This document shows positions 17,582 through 54,397 of a stretch of DNA of 64,000 nucleotides, piece after piece. The notes under the pieces were generated by a model. That model ran no database searches and was not told the DNA's origin. It saw only the letters and a program-made list of their open reading frames with translations. The stretch comes from Escherichia phage ECO07P1. The position numbers and the translations under genes were made by a program. Location of the stretch: sequence record OP172784. One strand, given 5' to 3'. Every line of letters begins with the position of its first letter. Position 1 is the stretch's first letter.

Positions 17582-17606
17582 GGGGACCCTAGAGGTCCCC
17601 TTTTTA
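17582..17606 (+). terminator. intrinsic terminator after gene 32
   Basis: ggggacc-ctaga-ggtcccc followed by ttttt. Confidence 0.8.
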
Positions 17607-17630
17607 TTTCAAAAATTTTTTCACAAAACT

Positions 17631-17660
17631 GTTTACAAGCATAAAGCTTTGTGGTACTAT
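17631..17660 (+). promoter_or_regulatory. early promoter (near-duplicate of the motA promoter cassette)
   Basis: GTTTAC 17631-17636, 18-nt spacer, gtggTACTAT; same UP element as at 1321-1346. Confidence 0.65.
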
Positions 17661-17703
17661 ACAACTATCGGCAATACTGCTGATAATTAAAGAGGAAAAT
17701 AAC

Positions 17704-26223: not shown

Positions 26224-26726
26224 GTACCTTTAACTTCCATAAGAACATGGAAATCATGGAAGGTAATGCCAAGATTATGAAGTTCATTGCACGTGATGAG
26301 CAGCTTCACCTTAAAGGCACTCAATATATTATTCGTCAACTTCAATCCGGTACTGATGGTGATGAATGGGTTAAAATTGCTCAAGAGTGTGAACAAGAAG
26401 CAGTTGATATTTTCATGGAAGTTAACCGCCAAGAAAAAGATTGGGCAGTTCATTTATTTAAAGATGGCGATGTTCCTGGATTAAATACAAATAGCATGTG
26501 GAGCTTTATTGATTACTTAACTGTATCTCGTATGAAACAGTGCGGTCTTCCATGCCCAATTACCGATGCTCCGGTTAAACATCCATATCCTTGGATTCGT
26601 GAATATCTTAATTCTGATAATGTTCAATCCGCGCCACAAGAAGTAGAACTGTCATCTTACCTTGTTGCACAGATTGATAATGATGTTGATGATAAAGTTA
26701 TGATGAGTTTTAAAAAATACTTTTAA
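26224..26726 (+). CDS. nrdB: ribonucleotide reductase small subunit, exon 2
   Basis: Frame gives C-TFNFHKNMEIMEGNAKI..., matching the conserved RNR small-subunit region. Confidence 0.85.
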
Positions 26727-26730
26727 GGAG

Positions 26731-26753
26731 TGGGCCGCAAGGCCCATTTTATT
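26731..26753 (+). terminator. hairpin plus T-run between nrdB stop and denA start
   Basis: tgggcc-gcaa-ggccca then ttttatt. Confidence 0.55.
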
Positions 26754-28341
<1,588 letters not shown>

Positions 28342-28344
28342 GCT

Positions 28345-28398
28345 GTTTACAAGTCCCTCGTGTTGTGTTATAGTAGACTTACTGACATAACATGAGGA
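28345..28398 (+). promoter_or_regulatory. early promoter inside a long inverted repeat upstream of alc (cassette copy 1)
   Basis: GTTTAC 28345-28350, -10 tatagt 28369-28374; arms 28356-28370 / 28383-28397 with SD gagga in the 3' arm. Confidence 0.6.
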
Positions 28399-28402
28399 CT
28401 TT

Positions 28403-28909
28403 ATGATGGATTTACAGCTTATTACTACTGAGATGGTCGTTGAAGCATACGGTGATACTACAGATGGGATTTCTGTATTTAAAGGAAATCGTCGAGTTGG
28501 ATATATCACCGATCTTAAGAAAGATTTAGCTAAGCAAGTCAAGCGGAAAACGACCATTAAAGAATATCGAAATCGTCGTCTTGAGCAAGCCCGTGATATG
28601 CTTCCCGATGCGGTTGAGGAGATGAAAGTCTTTTTAGAAAATCAGCTTGCGAAATATGATTGTGATGTGTTCATTAATCAGACTCAACCTAATGTTCATA
28701 TTAATAACTGTAAATGCTATATCATCGTTAATCCTTTGACGGGAAAACATCGTCTTGGAATTAGTAATCCAAATCGTAGCGCATCGGATATGGCAGAAGA
28801 TGTTGAGGCATGCTTTAAAATTTCTAAATCTCCTGCTGAACATCATATTTTAATTAACGGTCTTTCTCAAGACGATATTATAGAGGTTATTAAAACTTTA
28901 TGCAATTAA
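28403..28909 (+). CDS. alc: Alc (host transcription shutoff) candidate
   Basis: 168-aa ORF directly after rnlA as in T4. Confidence 0.7.
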   Translation: MMDLQLITTEMVVEAYGDTTDGISVFKGNRRVGYITDLKKDLAKQVKRKTTIKEYRNRRLEQARDMLPDAVEEMKVFLENQLAKYDCDVFINQTQPNVHINNCKCYIIVNPLTGKHRLGISNPNRSASDMAEDVEACFKISKSPAEHHILINGLSQDDIIEVIKTLCN

Positions 28910-31322: not shown

Positions 31323-31361
31323 GTTTACTTTACGGTAGAGTTGTGATATTATAGCTCTACC
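31323..31361 (+). promoter_or_regulatory. early promoter with -10 inside a 7-bp inverted repeat
   Basis: GTTTAC 31323-31328; arms ggtagag (31334-31340) / ctctacc (31355-31361); -10 TGaTATTAT in loop. Confidence 0.55.
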
Positions 31362-34287: not shown

Positions 34288-34318
34288 TGTTTACAGTATA
34301 GTTCCTTTGTGATAGTAT
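34288..34318 (+). promoter_or_regulatory. early promoter for ORF 34346
   Basis: GTTTAC 34288-34293, TG-extended -10 near 34311-34318; upstream A/T-rich region like the motA cassette. Confidence 0.55.
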
Positions 34319-34345
34319 TATCTTACACAAACAAAGGAGAATAAA

Positions 34346-34678
34346 ATGAAAACGATTAATCTGAACGCTACAGTTAAAACTAAATGCTTCAATGGTAAAT
34401 ATGATGAAACTATGTGGTTCTTAATGGCAGTTGAAGGTGATATTATTGAAGTAGAAACAACAGAAGGTATGGGAACAGATTTCACCTTTACAATTCAAGT
34501 TCATAATTTCTTTACTGGTTGGATTTATGAATTGAATACAGTAATCGTTGGAAAAATTGAACAAAATGAATTGGGTGAATGGTATTATGTTACAGCTCGT
34601 CAACGTGCCGAACGCTTAATTGAGAAGATGAAAAAAGTTGGTAAACTTGACATGCAGCACTGGAAAGTAGTAAAATAA
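34346..34678 (+). CDS. hypothetical early protein
   Basis: Track ORF; SD aaggaga; early promoter upstream. Confidence 0.5.
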   Translation: MKTINLNATVKTKCFNGKYDETMWFLMAVEGDIIEVETTEGMGTDFTFTIQVHNFFTGWIYELNTVIVGKIEQNELGEWYYVTARQRAERLIEKMKKVGKLDMQHWKVVK

Positions 34679-38854: not shown

Positions 38855-39039
38855 AAGCTTACTTAGAAACAATTGTCATTGCTCAAAAAGAAGGTGGAGA
38901 TGTTTCTACTTCTGTATCACAAGTCATTCTCGAATTTGTAGATGCATATGCTTATAATAAATTTACAGAAACATTTGATGCCTATGAAAAAGGACCAAAG
39001 TTTGAAATATATCGTACTCTCTTACCACTAGATTACTAA
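38851..39039 (+). CDS. hypothetical protein
   Basis: Track ORF; ATGA overlap with gene 30; hairpin downstream. Confidence 0.45.
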   Translation: MKAYLETIVIAQKEGGDVSTSVSQVILEFVDAYAYNKFTETFDAYEKGPKFEIYRTLLPLDY

Positions 39040-39054
39040 AGGCCTTCGGGCCTT
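39039..39054 (+). terminator. UUCG hairpin after ORF 38851..39039, immediately before the alt late promoter
   Basis: aaggcc-ttcg-ggcctt followed by taatttt. Confidence 0.55.
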
Positions 39055-39060
39055 TAATTT

Positions 39061-39068
39061 TATAAATA
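39061..39068 (+). promoter_or_regulatory. late promoter for alt copy 1
   Basis: tataaata 24 nt upstream of alt ATG; SD gagagg follows. Confidence 0.7.
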
Positions 39069-39091
39069 GAATAAACACTAGAGAGGCTATG

Positions 39092-41185
39092 ATGGAACTT
39101 ATTACAGAATTATTTGACGAAGATACTACTCTTCCGATTACAAACTTAAATCCAAAGAAGAAAATACCGCAAATTTTTTCAGTTCATGTTGATGACGCAA
39201 TTGAACAACCAGGCTTTCGTTTATGTACCTATACATCTGGAGGTGATACTAATCGCGATTTAAAAATGGGCGATAAAATGATGCATATTGTTCCTTTTAC
39301 ATTAACTGCTAAAGGTTCAATTGCTAAATTAAAAGGTCTCGGTCCAAGCCCAATTAATTATATCAATTCAGTTTTTACTGTTGCAATGCAGACGATGCGT
39401 CAGTATAAAATTGATGCCTGTATGCTCCGTATTCTTAAGTCTAAAACTGCTGGTCAAGCTCGACAAATTCAAGTTATTGCTGATAGACTTATCCGTAGTC
39501 GTTCGGGTGGCAGATACGTCCTTCTTAAGGAACTCTGGGATTACGATAAAAAGTATGCATATATTCTTATACATCGCAAAAATGTATCACTAGAAGACAT
39601 TCCAGGAGTTCCGGAAATTAGCACCGAGCTCTTTACTAAAGTTGAATCGAAGGTCGGTGATGTTTATATCAATAAAGATACTGGAGCTCAAGTAACTAAA
39701 AATGAGGCAATTGCTGCATCTATTGCGCAAGAAAATGATAAACGTTCTGACCAAGCTGTAATCGTTAAAGTTAAAATTTCCCGTAGAGCAATTGCACAAA
39801 GTCAATCATTAGAATCTTCTAGATTTGAAAGCGAATTATTCCAGAAGTATGAATCTACCGCAGCTAATTTCAATAAACCTGCTACCGCTCCTTTAATTCC
39901 CGAAGCAGAAGAAATGAAACTTGGAATTAATTCATTGGCTTCTAAAACTAAGGCAGCAAAAATTATTGCTGAAGGAACTGCAGATGAACTTCACTATGAT
40001 TATAAATTCTTTTCAAAAAGTGAGGTTAATGAAGTTTCTGAAAAAATTAAAGATGTAATTTTTAACGCGATCAAAAATGAACCGACTACTTCAATAAAAT
40101 GTTTAGAGAAGTATGCAGCAGCTATTAATAAATTCTTTGAAGAATATAAAGATACTTGGCTTGATAAACATAATAAAACCCGTAAAGGACAGCCAGATGA
40201 AGTCTGGGAAGAAATAACTAAAAATTCCTGGAACGCAGCAAAAACTAAATTCCTCAAACGAATGATTTATAGCTTTTCTGGAATTGGTGCAGGTCCAATG
40301 ATTGATATTACTATTGCCCGTGATGGTTCTAAATATACTCCATCACAAAAGCGCGGCATTAGAGAGTATTGTGGTTCAGGATATACTGACATCAATAATC
40401 TTCTTTTAGGACGCTACAATCCAGAACGATATGATGTAATGAGTGAAAAAGAAATTGAATCTGCTATAAATAACTTAGATTCAGCTTTTGAAAATGGTGA
40501 CCGTATACCGGAAGGCATTACAGTTTATCGTGCACAAAGTATGACTGCTCCTATATACGAAGCACTAGTTAAAAATAAAGTGTTCTATTTCAGAAATTTT
40601 GTATCTACTTCTTTAACTCCTATCATTTTTGGGCGTTTTGGAATTACACATGCTGGTATTGGTCTTTTAGAACCAGAAGCTCGTAATGAATTAACAGTTG
40701 ATAAAAATGAAGAAGGAATAACTATTAATCCAAACGAAATAAGAGCGTATAAAGAAAATCCTGAATACGTTAAAGTTCAAATAGGATGGGCAATTGATGG
40801 AGCTCATAAAGTTAATGTTGTATATCCAGGAAGTCTCGGAATAGCAACAGAAGCTGAAGTTATTCTACCACGCGGATTGATGGTCAAAGTTAATAAAATA
40901 ACTGATGCTTCTAATAACGACGGAACAACATCTAATAATACAAAACTCATTCAAGCTGAAGTTATGACTACGGAAGAACTCACCGAATCAGTCATTTATG
41001 ACGGTGACCGTCTAATGGAAACTGGTGAAGTAGTTGCAATGACAGGTGATATTGAAATAGAAGACAGAGTTGACTTTGCATCATTTGTTTCATCAAATGT
41101 TAAACAAAAAGTAGAATCATCTCTTGGAATTATTGCGTCTTGCATAGATATTACAAACATGCCTTACAAGTTCGTTCAAGGATAA
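39092..41185 (+). CDS. alt: Alt ADP-ribosyltransferase (packaged head protein), copy 1
   Basis: ~697 aa; N-terminal MELITE (L/I-x-E protease-site-like); R...STS...E signature (VYRAQ, FVSTSL, EAEVILPRG); late promoter directly upstream. Confidence 0.8.
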   Translation: MELITELFDEDTTLPITNLNPKKKIPQIFSVHVDDAIEQPGFRLCTYTSGGDTNRDLKMGDKMMHIVPFTLTAKGSIAKLKGLGPSPINYINSVFTVAMQTMRQYKIDACMLRILKSKTAGQARQIQVIADRLIRSRSGGRYVLLKELWDYDKKYAYILIHRKNVSLEDIPGVPEISTELFTKVESKVGDVYINKDTGAQVTKNEAIAASIAQENDKRSDQAVIVKVKISRRAIAQSQSLESSRFESELFQKYESTAANFNKPATAPLIPEAEEMKLGINSLASKTKAAKIIAEGTADELHYDYKFFSKSEVNEVSEKIKDVIFNAIKNEPTTSIKCLEKYAAAINKFFEEYKDTWLDKHNKTRKGQPDEVWEEITKNSWNAAKTKFLKRMIYSFSGIGAGPMIDITIARDGSKYTPSQKRGIREYCGSGYTDINNLLLGRYNPERYDVMSEKEIESAINNLDSAFENGDRIPEGITVYRAQSMTAPIYEALVKNKVFYFRNFVSTSLTPIIFGRFGITHAGIGLLEPEARNELTVDKNEEGITINPNEIRAYKENPEYVKVQIGWAIDGAHKVNVVYPGSLGIATEAEVILPRGLMVKVNKITDASNNDGTTSNNTKLIQAEVMTTEELTESVIYDGDRLMETGEVVAMTGDIEIEDRVDFASFVSSNVKQKVESSLGIIASCIDITNMPYKFVQG

Positions 41186-41188
41186 ATC

Positions 41189-43246
41189 ATGGAACTTATT
41201 ACAGAATTATTTGACGGCGCTTCGGCGCCGGTTGTTAACTTAAATCCTAAGCATAAAATACCTCAAATTTTCGCTATTCAAGCCGGTGAAGAAAGTGTGC
41301 TTCCTGGATTTAGATTTTGTACATACACCTCTGGCGGTGATACAAATAAAAACGTTAAGCCAGGCGATAAAATGATGCATATCGTAATGATAGGTGTTAA
41401 TGAGAAATTATCATTAGTTAAACTTAAAAACTTGGGTGGAAATCCAATTGGTGTTATTAATGCGGTTTTTGATACTGCTCTTCAAACAATGAAACAGTAT
41501 AAAATTGACGCATGCCTATTCCGCGTACTAAAAAGTAAAACAAATGGCGCAGCTCGTCAAATGCAAGTTATTGCTGACCGTTTAGTACGTACTAAAGGAG
41601 CAGGTCGATATGTTCTTTTAAAGGAAATCTGGGATTATGATAAAAAGTATGCATATATTATGGTTTACCGTAAAAATGCCAATTTAGAAGACATTCCAGG
41701 TGTACCTCCTATTTCAACTGAGTTATTCACAAAAGTTGAATCAAAGGTTGGTGATGTTTATGTAGATGTTAAAACAGGTAATGCTGTTCCTAAAGCTGTT
41801 GCTGTTGCTGCTTCTATTGCTTTAGAAAATGATAAGCGCACGGATCAAGCTGTTATTCAGAAAACTAAAATTAGTCGTCGATTAGCAGCGCAAGCTCAAT
41901 ATTCTACTGTAGATGCTTCGCTTCAGGGTGATAGCTTCGCTGCCAAGAAATATCAAGAGTTTGAATCTAAAGTTCCGGTATATAAAGCAGAAGGACCAAT
42001 GAACTCTGGCGTTATTCAGATTGGTTCAAACTTCAGCAAAGGAGCTATCGGTGGTATGAGAAGTGCTTCTCGTTTTAAATCTAGCGATTATGAACTAGAA
42101 AACTTCCGAAATCATATTGCATTGGCTCATGCGCGTTTACGTGATCCATCTATCAAGTTACAGAGCGATATAACATATCAAGGTTCTCAGGAATATTTAA
42201 AGAATAAAGAATTTTTTGATTATAAAACTGATAAAATTTTAAGCGATCTTGCTGACATTAATATTTCTAATAGCTTTGATGTTATTAAGAAAATCGTCAA
42301 TGATTTAGTTAAAGGTTCTAAAGCCACGCCAGACGAAAAGATAGCTATTGTTCAATTTGTCATGAATGGCATTTATAAATTGATTAATGAGTCTGCTTCT
42401 CAAGCGTATGAATATGCAAGTACCGAAGTACCCCCAAAAGGATTAACTCAGGCTGAGTCTGATGTAATTGAAGATTATTGTGCAGATTCATATGTTGAAA
42501 TGAACTCGTTCCTCTTGGGTAAACCAGATTCTACCCGTGAAGAATACATGGAACGAGCTATTAAACACATCGAGACGCTGGATTCTGCATTCGCCAAAGG
42601 ATCAGTTCTTCCTCCAGGAACTACGCTTTATCGTGGACAAGAAGTTACTTTTAAAACTTTACGCCATAATATTGAAAATAAAATGTTCTATTTCAAGAAC
42701 TTCGTATCAACATCGCTTAAACCAAATATCTTCGGTGAGTATGGTAAAAACTATATGGCCCTAGATGATTCTGGTGCAGTATTTTCTGGTGAAGGAGAAG
42801 GTTCAGTTGATGCTGAAGATTTAATGCATATGGGCAGTCACTCTGCTTACGCGAATGAAGATGCTGAAACTAGCGTGGGTATGGTAATTAAAGGGGCTGA
42901 GCGAATCAAAGTTATCGTTCCAGGTCATTTATCAGGATTTCCATCAGAAGCTGAAGTTATTCTACCGCGCGGAATTTTACTGAAGATTAATAAAGTAAGT
43001 ACGTACTTTATGAAAGAAACTGCTTATAACAAGTATCTAATAGAAGGTACAATCGTTCCTCCTTCTGAACAATTAGAGGAATCGGTATATGATGGCGACC
43101 ATCTAATGGAAACTGGCGAAGTTCGTCCAATGGCTGGATTTAATCAATTCCTTGTAGAAGAATCAAAAGAAGAGGAAAACGAAGTTTCTCAAATCTTAGC
43201 TTCTTTGGTTAACATTAACGGAATGTCTAAAAAGTTCAAAATGTAG
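41189..43246 (+). CDS. Alt-like ADP-ribosyltransferase paralog, copy 2
   Basis: 685 aa; same N-terminal MELITELFD, same signature (LYRGQ, FVSTSL, EAEVILPRG), conserved C-terminal ESVYDGDHLMETGEV; central ~200 aa divergent. Confidence 0.75.
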   Translation: MELITELFDGASAPVVNLNPKHKIPQIFAIQAGEESVLPGFRFCTYTSGGDTNKNVKPGDKMMHIVMIGVNEKLSLVKLKNLGGNPIGVINAVFDTALQTMKQYKIDACLFRVLKSKTNGAARQMQVIADRLVRTKGAGRYVLLKEIWDYDKKYAYIMVYRKNANLEDIPGVPPISTELFTKVESKVGDVYVDVKTGNAVPKAVAVAASIALENDKRTDQAVIQKTKISRRLAAQAQYSTVDASLQGDSFAAKKYQEFESKVPVYKAEGPMNSGVIQIGSNFSKGAIGGMRSASRFKSSDYELENFRNHIALAHARLRDPSIKLQSDITYQGSQEYLKNKEFFDYKTDKILSDLADINISNSFDVIKKIVNDLVKGSKATPDEKIAIVQFVMNGIYKLINESASQAYEYASTEVPPKGLTQAESDVIEDYCADSYVEMNSFLLGKPDSTREEYMERAIKHIETLDSAFAKGSVLPPGTTLYRGQEVTFKTLRHNIENKMFYFKNFVSTSLKPNIFGEYGKNYMALDDSGAVFSGEGEGSVDAEDLMHMGSHSAYANEDAETSVGMVIKGAERIKVIVPGHLSGFPSEAEVILPRGILLKINKVSTYFMKETAYNKYLIEGTIVPPSEQLEESVYDGDHLMETGEVRPMAGFNQFLVEESKEEENEVSQILASLVNINGMSKKFKM

Positions 43247-43300
43247 TTTACAAGTTCCTCATGTTGTGTTATAGTAGTCTTACTGACATAACATGAGGAA
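43246..43300 (+). promoter_or_regulatory. early promoter inside a long inverted repeat (cassette copy 2, near-identical to 28345..28398)
   Basis: GTTTAC 43246-43251, -10 tatagt; perfect 11-bp arms ttcctcatgtt (43255-43265) / aacatgaggaa (43290-43300); SD gagga in 3' arm. Confidence 0.6.
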
Positions 43301-43306
43301 CACAAA

Positions 43307-43597
43307 ATGAAATCTTCTTTGCGCTTTTTAGGTCAAGAACTTGTAGTTGAAGGCGTTATTCCTGCTGATAACGCTTTTAATGAAGCAGTTTACGATGAAT
43401 TTATCAAAATTTTTGGAACAGATAAAAAGTTCGGAATTTTTCCTTCTGAAAATTTTTCAAAGCCAGAACAGACTGAAAGTATTTTTCAGGGTGTGGTAAC
43501 AGGTAAATTTGAGTCAGAAGCTCCGGTAAAAATTGAAGTTTATATTGAAGACAGTTTAGTTGCTTCAGTTGCTGCTTTCATTTCATTCCGTAAATAA
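43307..43597 (+). CDS. hypothetical 96-aa protein with its own early promoter
   Basis: Track ORF; SD gagga within promoter-palindrome cassette. Confidence 0.5.
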   Translation: MKSSLRFLGQELVVEGVIPADNAFNEAVYDEFIKIFGTDKKFGIFPSENFSKPEQTESIFQGVVTGKFESEAPVKIEVYIEDSLVASVAAFISFRK

Positions 43598-43603
43598 AAA
43601 CAT

Positions 43604-43621
43604 GGGGACCGAAAGGTCCCC
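43604..43621. terminator. bidirectional terminator between convergent ORF 43307..43597 and gene 54
   Basis: ggggacc-gaaa-ggtcccc flanked by A/T runs on both sides. Confidence 0.65.
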
Positions 43622-43625
43622 ATTG

Positions 43626-53716: not shown

Positions 53717-54397
53717 ATGATAGATAAAGATTATATTGCAGAGCTGAAGGCTCTTGATGATAATAAAGAAGCTAAGGCTAAATTAGCTGAATATGCTGAA
53801 CAGTTTGGTATAAAGGTCAAAAAGAATAAATCTTTTGATAATATCGTTGTTGATATTGAAGAAGCCCTCCAGAAGCTCGCTAGCGAACCTATGCCAGAGA
53901 CTGATGGGTTATCTATTAAAGACTTAATCAATGCTGCTGATGCTGCAGAAGGATTAAAATATGACGATGAAGAAGTCAATCCAGAAGCAGCACTTCTGAT
54001 TGATTCTCCGGTTAAATCTGACATTAAAATTGAAGTAGTAGAAAAGGATAAAATTCCTGAAAATACTGATGTTTTGATTGAAGATACTCCTTTTGTTGAA
54101 GAAAAATTCGAGCAGGCCGTAGCTGAGATTATTGAATCTGAAAAGCCGTCTGTATTTACTCTTCCGGAAAACTTTAGTCCGAATCTTCAGCTGATTGGAA
54201 AAAATCCAGGATTCTGTACTGTTCCTTGGTGGATTTATCAATGGATTGCTGAAACTCCGGATTGGAAATCTCACCCAACTAGTTTTGAACACGCGTCAGC
54301 ACACCAAACTTTATTTAGCTTAATTTATTACATTAACCGTGACGGATCAGTTTTAATTCGTGAAACACGCAACTCTTCTTTCGTGACATTAAAATAA
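53717..54397 (+). CDS. inh: Inh-like protein (inhibitor of prohead protease), assigned by position
   Basis: 226-aa ORF directly upstream of hoc as in T4. Confidence 0.55.
   Translation: MIDKDYIAELKALDDNKEAKAKLAEYAEQFGIKVKKNKSFDNIVVDIEEALQKLASEPMPETDGLSIKDLINAADAAEGLKYDDEEVNPEAALLIDSPVKSDIKIEVVEKDKIPENTDVLIEDTPFVEEKFEQAVAEIIESEKPSVFTLPENFSPNLQLIGKNPGFCTVPWWIYQWIAETPDWKSHPTSFEHASAHQTLFSLIYYINRDGSVLIRETRNSSFVTLK

Follow-up and report, generated by a model that had tools for sequence, protein, structure and literature searches.

An alc-type early promoter before alt.-3 of Escherichia phage ECO07P1 that may double as the anti-Shine-Dalgarno arm of a translational insulator

The subject of this work is a compact promoter/hairpin cassette that precedes the small gene alt.-3 (43307–43597, + strand) in a 64,000-nucleotide stretch of Escherichia phage ECO07P1 (sequence record OP172784; this whole stretch is referred to as the window and supplies all coordinates unless stated otherwise). 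We consider it fairly probable that this cassette is an early promoter that doubles as the anti-Shine-Dalgarno (anti-SD) arm of a translational insulator for alt.-3: the gene would be an immediate-early accessory gene with its own strong sigma-70 promoter right behind the end of the alt reading frame upstream, and the transcript from this promoter (starting at about 43282) would begin inside the hairpin without its 5' arm, leave the ribosome site open and allow production of Alt.-3 in the first minutes of infection. RNA initiated at 39061, the late promoter of alt, or RNA of earlier read-through would on the other hand carry both arms, form a 17+4 bp hairpin and bury the SD sequence, such that alt.-3 would not be translated from it; the outcome would be an early-only pulse of Alt.-3 that is coupled to its own promoter.

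The cassette (the second of two alc-type copies; 43246–43300, + strand) begins with the G of GTTTAC, ends together with the 3' arm and is sharply delimited at either edge. Its promoter starts on the base following the TAG that closes the second alt reading frame, scores 10/12 in our promoter scan and has the layout of a T4 early sigma-70 promoter (GTTTAC(A), 17 nt, TGn-extended TAnnnT, here TGT-TATAGT; 43246–43275): the -35 element TTTACA (43247–43252, within a GTTTACA of T4 early-promoter type) is followed by a 17-nt spacer and by the -10 element TATAGT (43270–43275) with its upstream TGn at 43267–43268, and from the usual distance of 7 nt transcription would be expected to start near 43282. 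A first-pass annotation, prepared from the DNA alone, had described perfect 11-bp arms around the -10 with an SD in the 3' arm, all of which we recovered: TTCCTCATGTT (43255–43265) and AACATGAGGAA (43290–43300) are perfectly complementary and are the sole match for such an arm pair in the window, with none expected from 100 shuffles. RNA folds extend these arms to a helix of 17 bp including G-U pairs (43254–43270 with 43285–43301), topped by a 4-bp apical helix; the 5', anti-SD arm is made up of promoter spacer and -10 (spacer-shuffle p 0.0005), and the 3' arm contains the SD sequence GAGGA (43295–43299), 7 nt ahead of the ATG. The 101-nt hairpin context folds with -31.4 kcal/mol (z = -5.65, with 0/200 shuffles as stable), whilst RNA from the predicted start shows no significant structure in the folds. 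Within 43293–43310, the 3' arm additionally holds an AUG (ACAUGAGGA) that starts a 5-codon mini-ORF (open reading frame), MRNTK, whose TGA stop overlaps the alt.-3 start (AUGA); ATGAGGA is common in the alc and alt.-3 leaders of other genera, being present in most although not all of them.

In order to compare ribosome binding site (RBS) accessibility between transcripts, we used opening energies, defined as the constrained-ensemble cost of opening positions -15 to +3 around the gene start; mean unpaired probability, the measure tried otherwise, was uninformative. Opening the alt.-3 RBS costs 22.3 kcal/mol in read-through RNA as opposed to 4.7 kcal/mol in the promoter's own transcript, and the equivalent values for alc are 19.7 and 3.3 kcal/mol. 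Among the 83 gene starts in the window (median 5.2, 90th percentile 11.4 kcal/mol), alt.-3 ranks first and alc second in opening cost. Since the 5' arm lies between the -35 and the end of the -10, it is upstream of any start from the alt.-3 promoter, and the own transcript must hence lack this arm. The idea put forward in the first-pass annotation, that the site is masked on read-through RNA and open on the gene's own transcript, is therefore upheld in terms of predicted energetics. The third-highest opening cost in the window (16.6 kcal/mol) is that of the denA start (26754), where a GC-rich hairpin (GGGCCGCAAGGCCC, 26690–26756) is situated between an AAGGAG motif and the denA AUG; this hairpin may be a terminator or part of a split ribosome site.

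Early expression of alt.-3 from its own promoter had likewise been proposed, and here the published T4 data are informative: alt.-3 is classed as early for both RNA and protein, whilst the onset of alt, alt.-1 and alt.-2 RNA is later, Alt protein is late, Alt.-1 protein was undetected and both alt.-1 and alt.-2 are without a protein class (Wolfram-Schauerte et al. 2022, PMC9697503). As alt.-3 RNA appears earlier than that of its upstream neighbours, the gene needs its own promoter, and a GTTTACA-17-TAnnnT promoter is indeed present directly after the alt stop codon in 9/9 genera sampled. Label-free quantification of T4 Alt.-3 (P39493) gave zero before infection, approximately 0.9e8 at 1 min, 7.8e8 at 3 min and 14e8 at 5 min, followed by flat values of 14–19e8 from 8 to 30 min (PMC9697503), and the rise in these data ends after 5–12 min. 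The proposal thus agrees with early RNA and with protein from 1 min onwards in T4, as well as with a promoter conserved in 9 genera; the lack of an early transcript or of translation, named beforehand as grounds for abandoning it, is contradicted by the T4 RNA and protein data. The T4 data provide only indirect support for immediate, phage-protein-independent transcription of alt.-3.

The presumed source of read-through RNA is a late promoter, TATAAATA, at 39061–39068 (+ strand) ahead of alt, and the assignment of the alt genes to such a promoter in the first-pass annotation is in keeping with the late expression of alt in T4. A terminator was found upstream of this promoter (39037–39056), and as the terminator scan of the window predicted none from the late alt promoter onwards to alt.-3, late transcripts would be expected to reach 43602–43623 with both arms. 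At this position the scan calls, on either strand, the bidirectional intrinsic terminator that had been noted after the ORF: it separates alt.-3 (+) from gene 54 (-), has a 9-bp stem with 6 GC pairs, folds with about -19 to -20 kcal/mol on each strand and exhibits the tails TGTTATATTG (+) and GTTTTTATTT (-), of which the + strand tail is weak; the same element carries a terminator annotation in SV76 and PhAPEC2. Within our model it is rather likely that late read-through RNA exists and is translationally silent for alt.-3.

A different function for the stem-loop would be to act on the upstream RNA, either as an attenuator or terminator of the PeSL type or as a stabiliser of the alt 3' end, with its overlap with the SD sequence being incidental. 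Early-promoter stem-loops of RB49 and phi1 have reported terminator activity (Arbiol et al. 2010, PMC2839356), and PeSL-like inverted repeats that flank the -10 without reaching the SD are found at the promoters at 31324, 18339 and 34682 of the window and at T4 ipII. However, the alt.-3 stem is AU-rich, no run of T (U in the RNA) follows its 3' arm and the terminator scan does not call it, whereas a real terminator is present 300 nt downstream (43602–43623). Furthermore, the cognate duplexes between spacer and translation initiation region are gene-specific, and the property conserved across genera is the placement of the 3' arm over the SD or start, with loop length and arm sequence both varying. 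We thus regard a role in the upstream RNA as unlikely; such a role and SD masking are compatible and not exclusive.

The strongest indication that the pairing itself is selected comes from alc. The other copy of the cassette (copy 1) is found directly before this gene (28345–28398, + strand, from repeat calls; alc 28403–28909, Pfam ALC, E 4e-91), is 51/54 identical to the alt.-3 copy and completes a set of only two copies per genome, both of which are beside conserved genes. MAFFT gave no structural register across genera, and pairs were tabulated by promoter-spacer position from single-sequence folds, with pairing tested through shuffling of the 17-nt spacer and through comparison of cognate and non-cognate duplexes. 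The alc layout, in which an anti-SD stands right after GTTTACA and the 3' arm consists of the leader plus either the SD or the first codons, recurs in Kagamiyamavirus, Dhakavirus, Karamvirus, Jiaodavirus, a Klebsiella phage and two Aeromonas phages. The arms themselves differ: TCCTCATTTTGTTG / CAACAAAATGAGGA in EcS1, TCTCCTCAT / ATGAGGAGA in Dhakavirus, TCTCCATTTGGTTGTGT / CACTAACCAAATGGAGA in Karamvirus, TCCTCATCAG / CTGATGAGGA in Jiaodavirus and CCTCGTTTGTT / AACAAACGAGG in Klebsiella phage Biddle, with the spacer pairing with the first codons in the two Aeromonas phages. Across genera almost all spacer bases of alc are paired and many compensatory pair types are seen; spacer shuffling gave p <= 0.01 in 7 of the 11 lineages and 0.04 in an eighth, and across these 11 lineages pairing was absent in Mosigvirus, Marfavirus and Acinetobacter phage Ac42. 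Preservation of the same layout with different, compensating arms argues that the pairing is selected. At the alc locus the pairing of the cassette has hence been kept by compensatory changes, and judged from these sequences the alc-type hairpin is old and selected, and what stays constant in it is that the translation start is covered.

These comparisons also bear on the possibility that the long helix serves as an RNase III-type cleavage site splitting the alt/alt.-3 RNA, or as a DNA inverted repeat for a regulator. The 17+4 bp helix comes close to the length accepted by RNase III, and the inverted repeat has its centre at the -10 and transcription start. In spite of this, the stems of other genera measure only 9–14 bp, and their arm sequences are not conserved between genera, contrary to what would be expected for a sequence-specific protein site. 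The G-U pairs of the stems would moreover turn into C-A mismatches at the DNA level or on the opposite strand, and an Rfam search of the hairpin returned no family match, only sub-threshold look-alikes of microRNA precursors. A processing or binding site is thus very improbable.

Turning to alt.-3 itself, the 5' arm in Tequatrovirus is perfect in this phage (TTCCTCATGTT), reads TTCCTTATGTT in the T2 type (one U-G) and TCCCTCGTGTT in T4 and most others, and is also seen as TCACTCGTGTT; changes in the 3' arm lead to U-G, G-U or U-A pairs. Approximately 5/7 of the stem substitutions keep pairing, by way of G-U or A-U, where about half would be expected, which is suggestive only of selection on pairing within these copies. 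Seven other genera exhibit an alt.-3 promoter of another type, with a 5-bp hairpin within the spacer (CCACAaggaTGTGG, ACACAtggaTGTGT and similar). The stem of this small hairpin covaries; an identical spacer, CCACAAGGATGTGG, is also present in the T4 promoters before rIIA.1 and nrdC.4 (T4 2403 and 50915). The Tequatrovirus alt.-3 spacer is homologous to the alc spacers of the other genera and not to their alt.-3 spacers, and identity between the alt.-3 and resident alc copies ends exactly at GTTTAC and GAGGA. As ACATGAGGA is ancestral in alt.-3 leaders, the two cassette ends offered micro-homology: in the Tequatrovirus lineage, the alc cassette appears to have taken the place of the alt.-3 promoter, possibly through recombination or gene conversion between their short common ends (GTTTACA ... 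CATGAGGA). The alc promoter of Mosigvirus has no masking hairpin and shows 0.81 identity with the alt.-3 promoter of the same genus, both being of the alt.-3 type; this is suggestive only of an exchange in the opposite direction, from alt.-3 to alc. As for the spread of the cassette, a search for related loci produced 5 loci, a 14-mer scan of viral contigs with the 3' arm gave nearly all chance matches, and the gapped cassette pattern found about 12 true T-even matches on metagenome contigs among chance promoter-like ones.

With exchange of this kind, the alt.-3 hairpin could be a mere passenger of promoter conversion from alc, having no selected role in its new position. The 51/54 identity of the two copies and their sharp boundaries would fit such an origin, as would the seven genera whose alt.-3 promoters are without a masking hairpin, the reverse homogenisation in Mosigvirus (0.81 identity) and the fact that PeSL cassettes are known recombination substrates (PMC2839356). 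A passenger, however, would not account for the 3' arm, which had to fit the resident alt.-3 SD region with its ancestral ACATGAGGA and has retained pairing, nor for the two 5'-arm changes (in this phage and in the T2 type) that make the alt.-3 stem better than that of alc. Both alt.-3 and alc are furthermore found directly downstream of a late-needed gene (alt and rnlA, respectively), where masking would help. Independent masking at alt.-3 is seen in Kosakonia phage 305: its hairpin is unrelated, with a spacer, GAATGAACG, that pairs with codons 2–4 (CGTTCATTC), an opening cost of 15.3 kcal/mol and a spacer-shuffle p of 0.0005. Masking at alt.-3 has thus arisen at least twice, independently, and we hold it improbable that the hairpin is without a selected role at this locus.

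Several points nevertheless weigh against alt.-3 being insulated in the manner we propose. Divergence within Tequatrovirus is too low for a significant covariation test, and many of these phages including T4 display a C-A mismatch as well as a G-U in the alt.-3 stem (TCCCTCGTGTT). The alt.-3 promoters of the seven other genera have no SD-masking hairpin and opening costs of 3–8 kcal/mol, such that masking is not essential for alt.-3. The two cassette copies of the window are not independent evidence, one being derived from the other, whilst the position of the alt.-3 start site and the level of translation from read-through RNA are both quantities that we infer. Finally, the plateau of T4 Alt.-3 agrees with masking, yet normalisation or protein turnover could produce it as well.

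In order to see how far the proposed translational insulator extends beyond alt.-3 and alc, we scanned the early regions of T4, which gave 25 promoter/gene pairs. Six of these 25 spacers specifically complement the leader and SD of the gene that they precede, namely those of nrdC.8, regB, denV, alt.-3, alc and ndd.4 (nrdC.8, regB, denV and ndd.4 having gene starts at 53885, 62740, 65355 and 166749 of T4, AF158101). All six show cognate duplexes of -18 to -21.5 kcal/mol compared to about -9 kcal/mol for non-cognate ones (cognate rank 1–2 of 25), spacer-shuffle p values <= 0.002, and opening costs of 11–19 kcal/mol in read-through RNA compared to 2.4–3.8 kcal/mol in the own transcript. Allowing for two related pairs, this amounts to at least four independent T4 cases in addition to gene 30.8. 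For this last gene (ORF at 34346 of the window, 110 residues), the promoter spacer TTCCTTTGTG is complementary to its own leader/SD CACAAACAAAGGAG (34290–34348) and the RBS costs 11.6 kcal/mol to open in read-through RNA and 0.4 kcal/mol in the own transcript; the architecture is thus repeated with an unrelated sequence. We tentatively suggest that there may be a general, hitherto undescribed T-even early control layer, in which around a quarter of T4 early promoters use their spacer as an anti-RBS and permit translation of their own transcript only, and in which such modules would be exchanged among loci (in Tequatrovirus from alc to alt.-3, with Mosigvirus showing the reverse type at alc), with 30.8 as a weaker member. 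In T4, the annotated ndd.4 start (166764) is found 5 codons upstream of an ATG with a well-spaced GGAGGA, and the annotated ATG overlaps that SD; from this arrangement the annotated start is probably too far upstream. The window also holds a second duplicated early-promoter family, at 1312–1385 and 17596–17669, with 85% identity over 74 nt.

Hairpins that sequester the RBS and contain a promoter are described for e, soc, 49, I-TevI and segB of T4 and for mobE of Aeh1 (PMC3014915, PMC2988022). The alt.-3 cassette resembles these systems: the SD or AUG is buried in the long RNA, and an internal promoter yields a shorter, translated RNA without the 5' arm, which at alt.-3 corresponds to an SD within the 17-bp helix and a 5' arm excluded from the own transcript, as placed by its inferred start. 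In the e/soc/I-TevI class, however, the internal promoter is late and translation is delayed until late, and the review of these hairpins says that the known cases 'are all late genes'; at alt.-3 the internal promoter is an early sigma-70 promoter, its spacer itself forms the 5' arm and the predicted effect is the opposite, namely early-only translation. A similar layout is known outside phages: in the fold-back inhibition of IS10/Tn10, said to have been described by Davis, Simons and Kleckner in 1985, a sigma-70 promoter reportedly begins within an inverted repeat, and transcripts from outside reportedly carry both arms and occlude the ribosome site, whilst the element's own transcript does not. 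There, the gene concerned is a transposase in an insertion sequence rather than a phage early gene, and no sequence relationship to the cassette exists. Protection of IS10 from external promoters has been documented (Davis et al. 1985 Cell 43:379, as cited in PMC13181058).

The PeSL cassettes of RB49, phi1 and JSE, with a stem that either lies between the two promoter hexamers or covers the -10 (Arbiol et al. 2010, PMC2839356), are likewise similar in that a compact strong early promoter, a stem-loop, an SD and a start codon are combined in a unit that is repeated in the genome and acts as a recombination module; the alt.-3 cassette has the same promoter and stem-loop layout. PeSL stems are typically of the GGGG...CCCC kind and are interpreted as terminators or attenuators, with no described SD pairing, and PeSLs are numerous and occupy hyperplastic regions flanking ORFans. 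The alt.-3 and alc cassettes differ in being restricted to two copies next to conserved core or accessory neighbours and in their AU-rich 17-bp stem, which includes the SD and exhibits neither a U-tract nor a terminator call; cassette replacement can be seen for them, with no evidence of ORF shuffling. Early promoters within RBS-masking hairpins are not mentioned in the accessible reviews on T4 early transcription and post-transcriptional control, a set that lies outside Miller et al. 2003. The kind of mechanism is hence known from T4 e/soc/I-TevI and from IS10, and the early-promoter version would be a variant of it.

As regards the genomic setting, the window is that of a T2/T4-like Tequatrovirus, with the T4 direction of early transcription corresponding to its + strand, and approximately 3 kb around the alt.-3 locus show 100% identity with Escherichia phage ECO07P3 and 96% with T2 and other Tequatroviruses. 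Gene 30 is followed by alt.1, alt, its full-length paralogue, alt.-3 and the terminator, after which gene 54 is found on the opposite strand. Both genes upstream of alt.-3 are full-length ADP-ribosyltransferases according to Pfam (ADPrib_exo_Tox): alt (39089–41185, + strand) encodes 698 residues and its paralogue (41189–43246, + strand, TAG stop at 43244–43246) encodes 685. Two full-length alt paralogues are also present in T2, and the DNA of the two genes is about 70–80% identical in blocks; alt.-1 and alt.-2 of T4 are the decayed remains of its second alt copy.

The ORF at 43307–43597, recognised in the first-pass annotation and present as described, encodes a protein of 96 residues from an ATG start. 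Although no motif had been recognised in it, it belongs to a named family, DUF5498 (PF17602; E 1.4e-64, 215 bits against a cut-off of 27, residues 1–96 of 96), which is T4 Alt.-3; the family's function is uncharacterised, and the match to PHROG 1739 is likewise to an unknown-function class. The same gene is annotated as alt.-3 in T4, T2 and RB32, and the protein is 96–98% identical to that of T4 and T2 over its full length and occupies the same slot between alt and gene 54. This synteny (alt / alt.-3 / gene 54, convergent with 54) is common to T4, T2 and eight other genera, and in tblastn searches alt.-3 was found in 836 phage records from at least 10 genera, all of them T4-like and always with the gene between alt and gene 54. 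The family is small, comprising 15 clusters at 50% identity among 1.84 billion representative proteins.

A very confident AlphaFold model of Alt.-3 (14-sequence alignment; pLDDT 95.4, pTM 0.83) has the topology beta-beta-alpha-beta-alpha-beta-beta. A sequence search of the PDB gave no relatives, comparison of the model with the PDB using Foldseek identified no solved-structure relative (best E 0.18, TM < 0.36), the viral predicted structures in BFVD returned only uncharacterised T4-like homologues, and PADLOC and NCBIfam searches gave no matches. The C-terminal end F-x-F-R-K is invariant in the family (residues 88–96 = PAFIxFRK) and forms the last core beta-strand of the model; a ClpX-binding tail was considered for this motif and rejected, as it is a core strand in the model rather than a flexible tail. 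T4 evades the CmdTAC defence system only via mutations that lengthen the C-terminus of Alt.-3, and the extended protein, though not the wild-type, blocks ClpP-dependent loss of the antitoxin; deletion of alt.-3 is viable (Vassallo et al. 2024, PMC11618068). The published escape mutants all lengthen precisely the C-terminus that is invariant. Alt.-3 is thus an abundant, conserved and non-essential early protein of uncharacterised function.

T4 is a reference system for temporal gene control, for which the accessible reviews describe RBS-masking hairpins for late genes only, and an early promoter that insulates its gene from read-through would, if true, explain how a sharp immediate-early pulse is obtained from a gene downstream of late and middle transcription units. 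The presence of RNA would then be uncoupled from protein synthesis in time-resolved transcriptomes, affecting the classes assigned by RNA-seq in T-even phages, and payloads placed behind such cassettes in phage engineering would be early-only. Our findings also bear on the exchange of promoter modules between loci. If the more general reading is true, regB, denV, nrdC.8, ndd.4, alc and alt.-3 would all be blind to delayed-early, middle and late read-through RNA. For Alt.-3, mutants of which defeat the CmdTAC defence system, confinement of the protein's synthesis to the first minutes of infection would provide a clue to its native role in host takeover.

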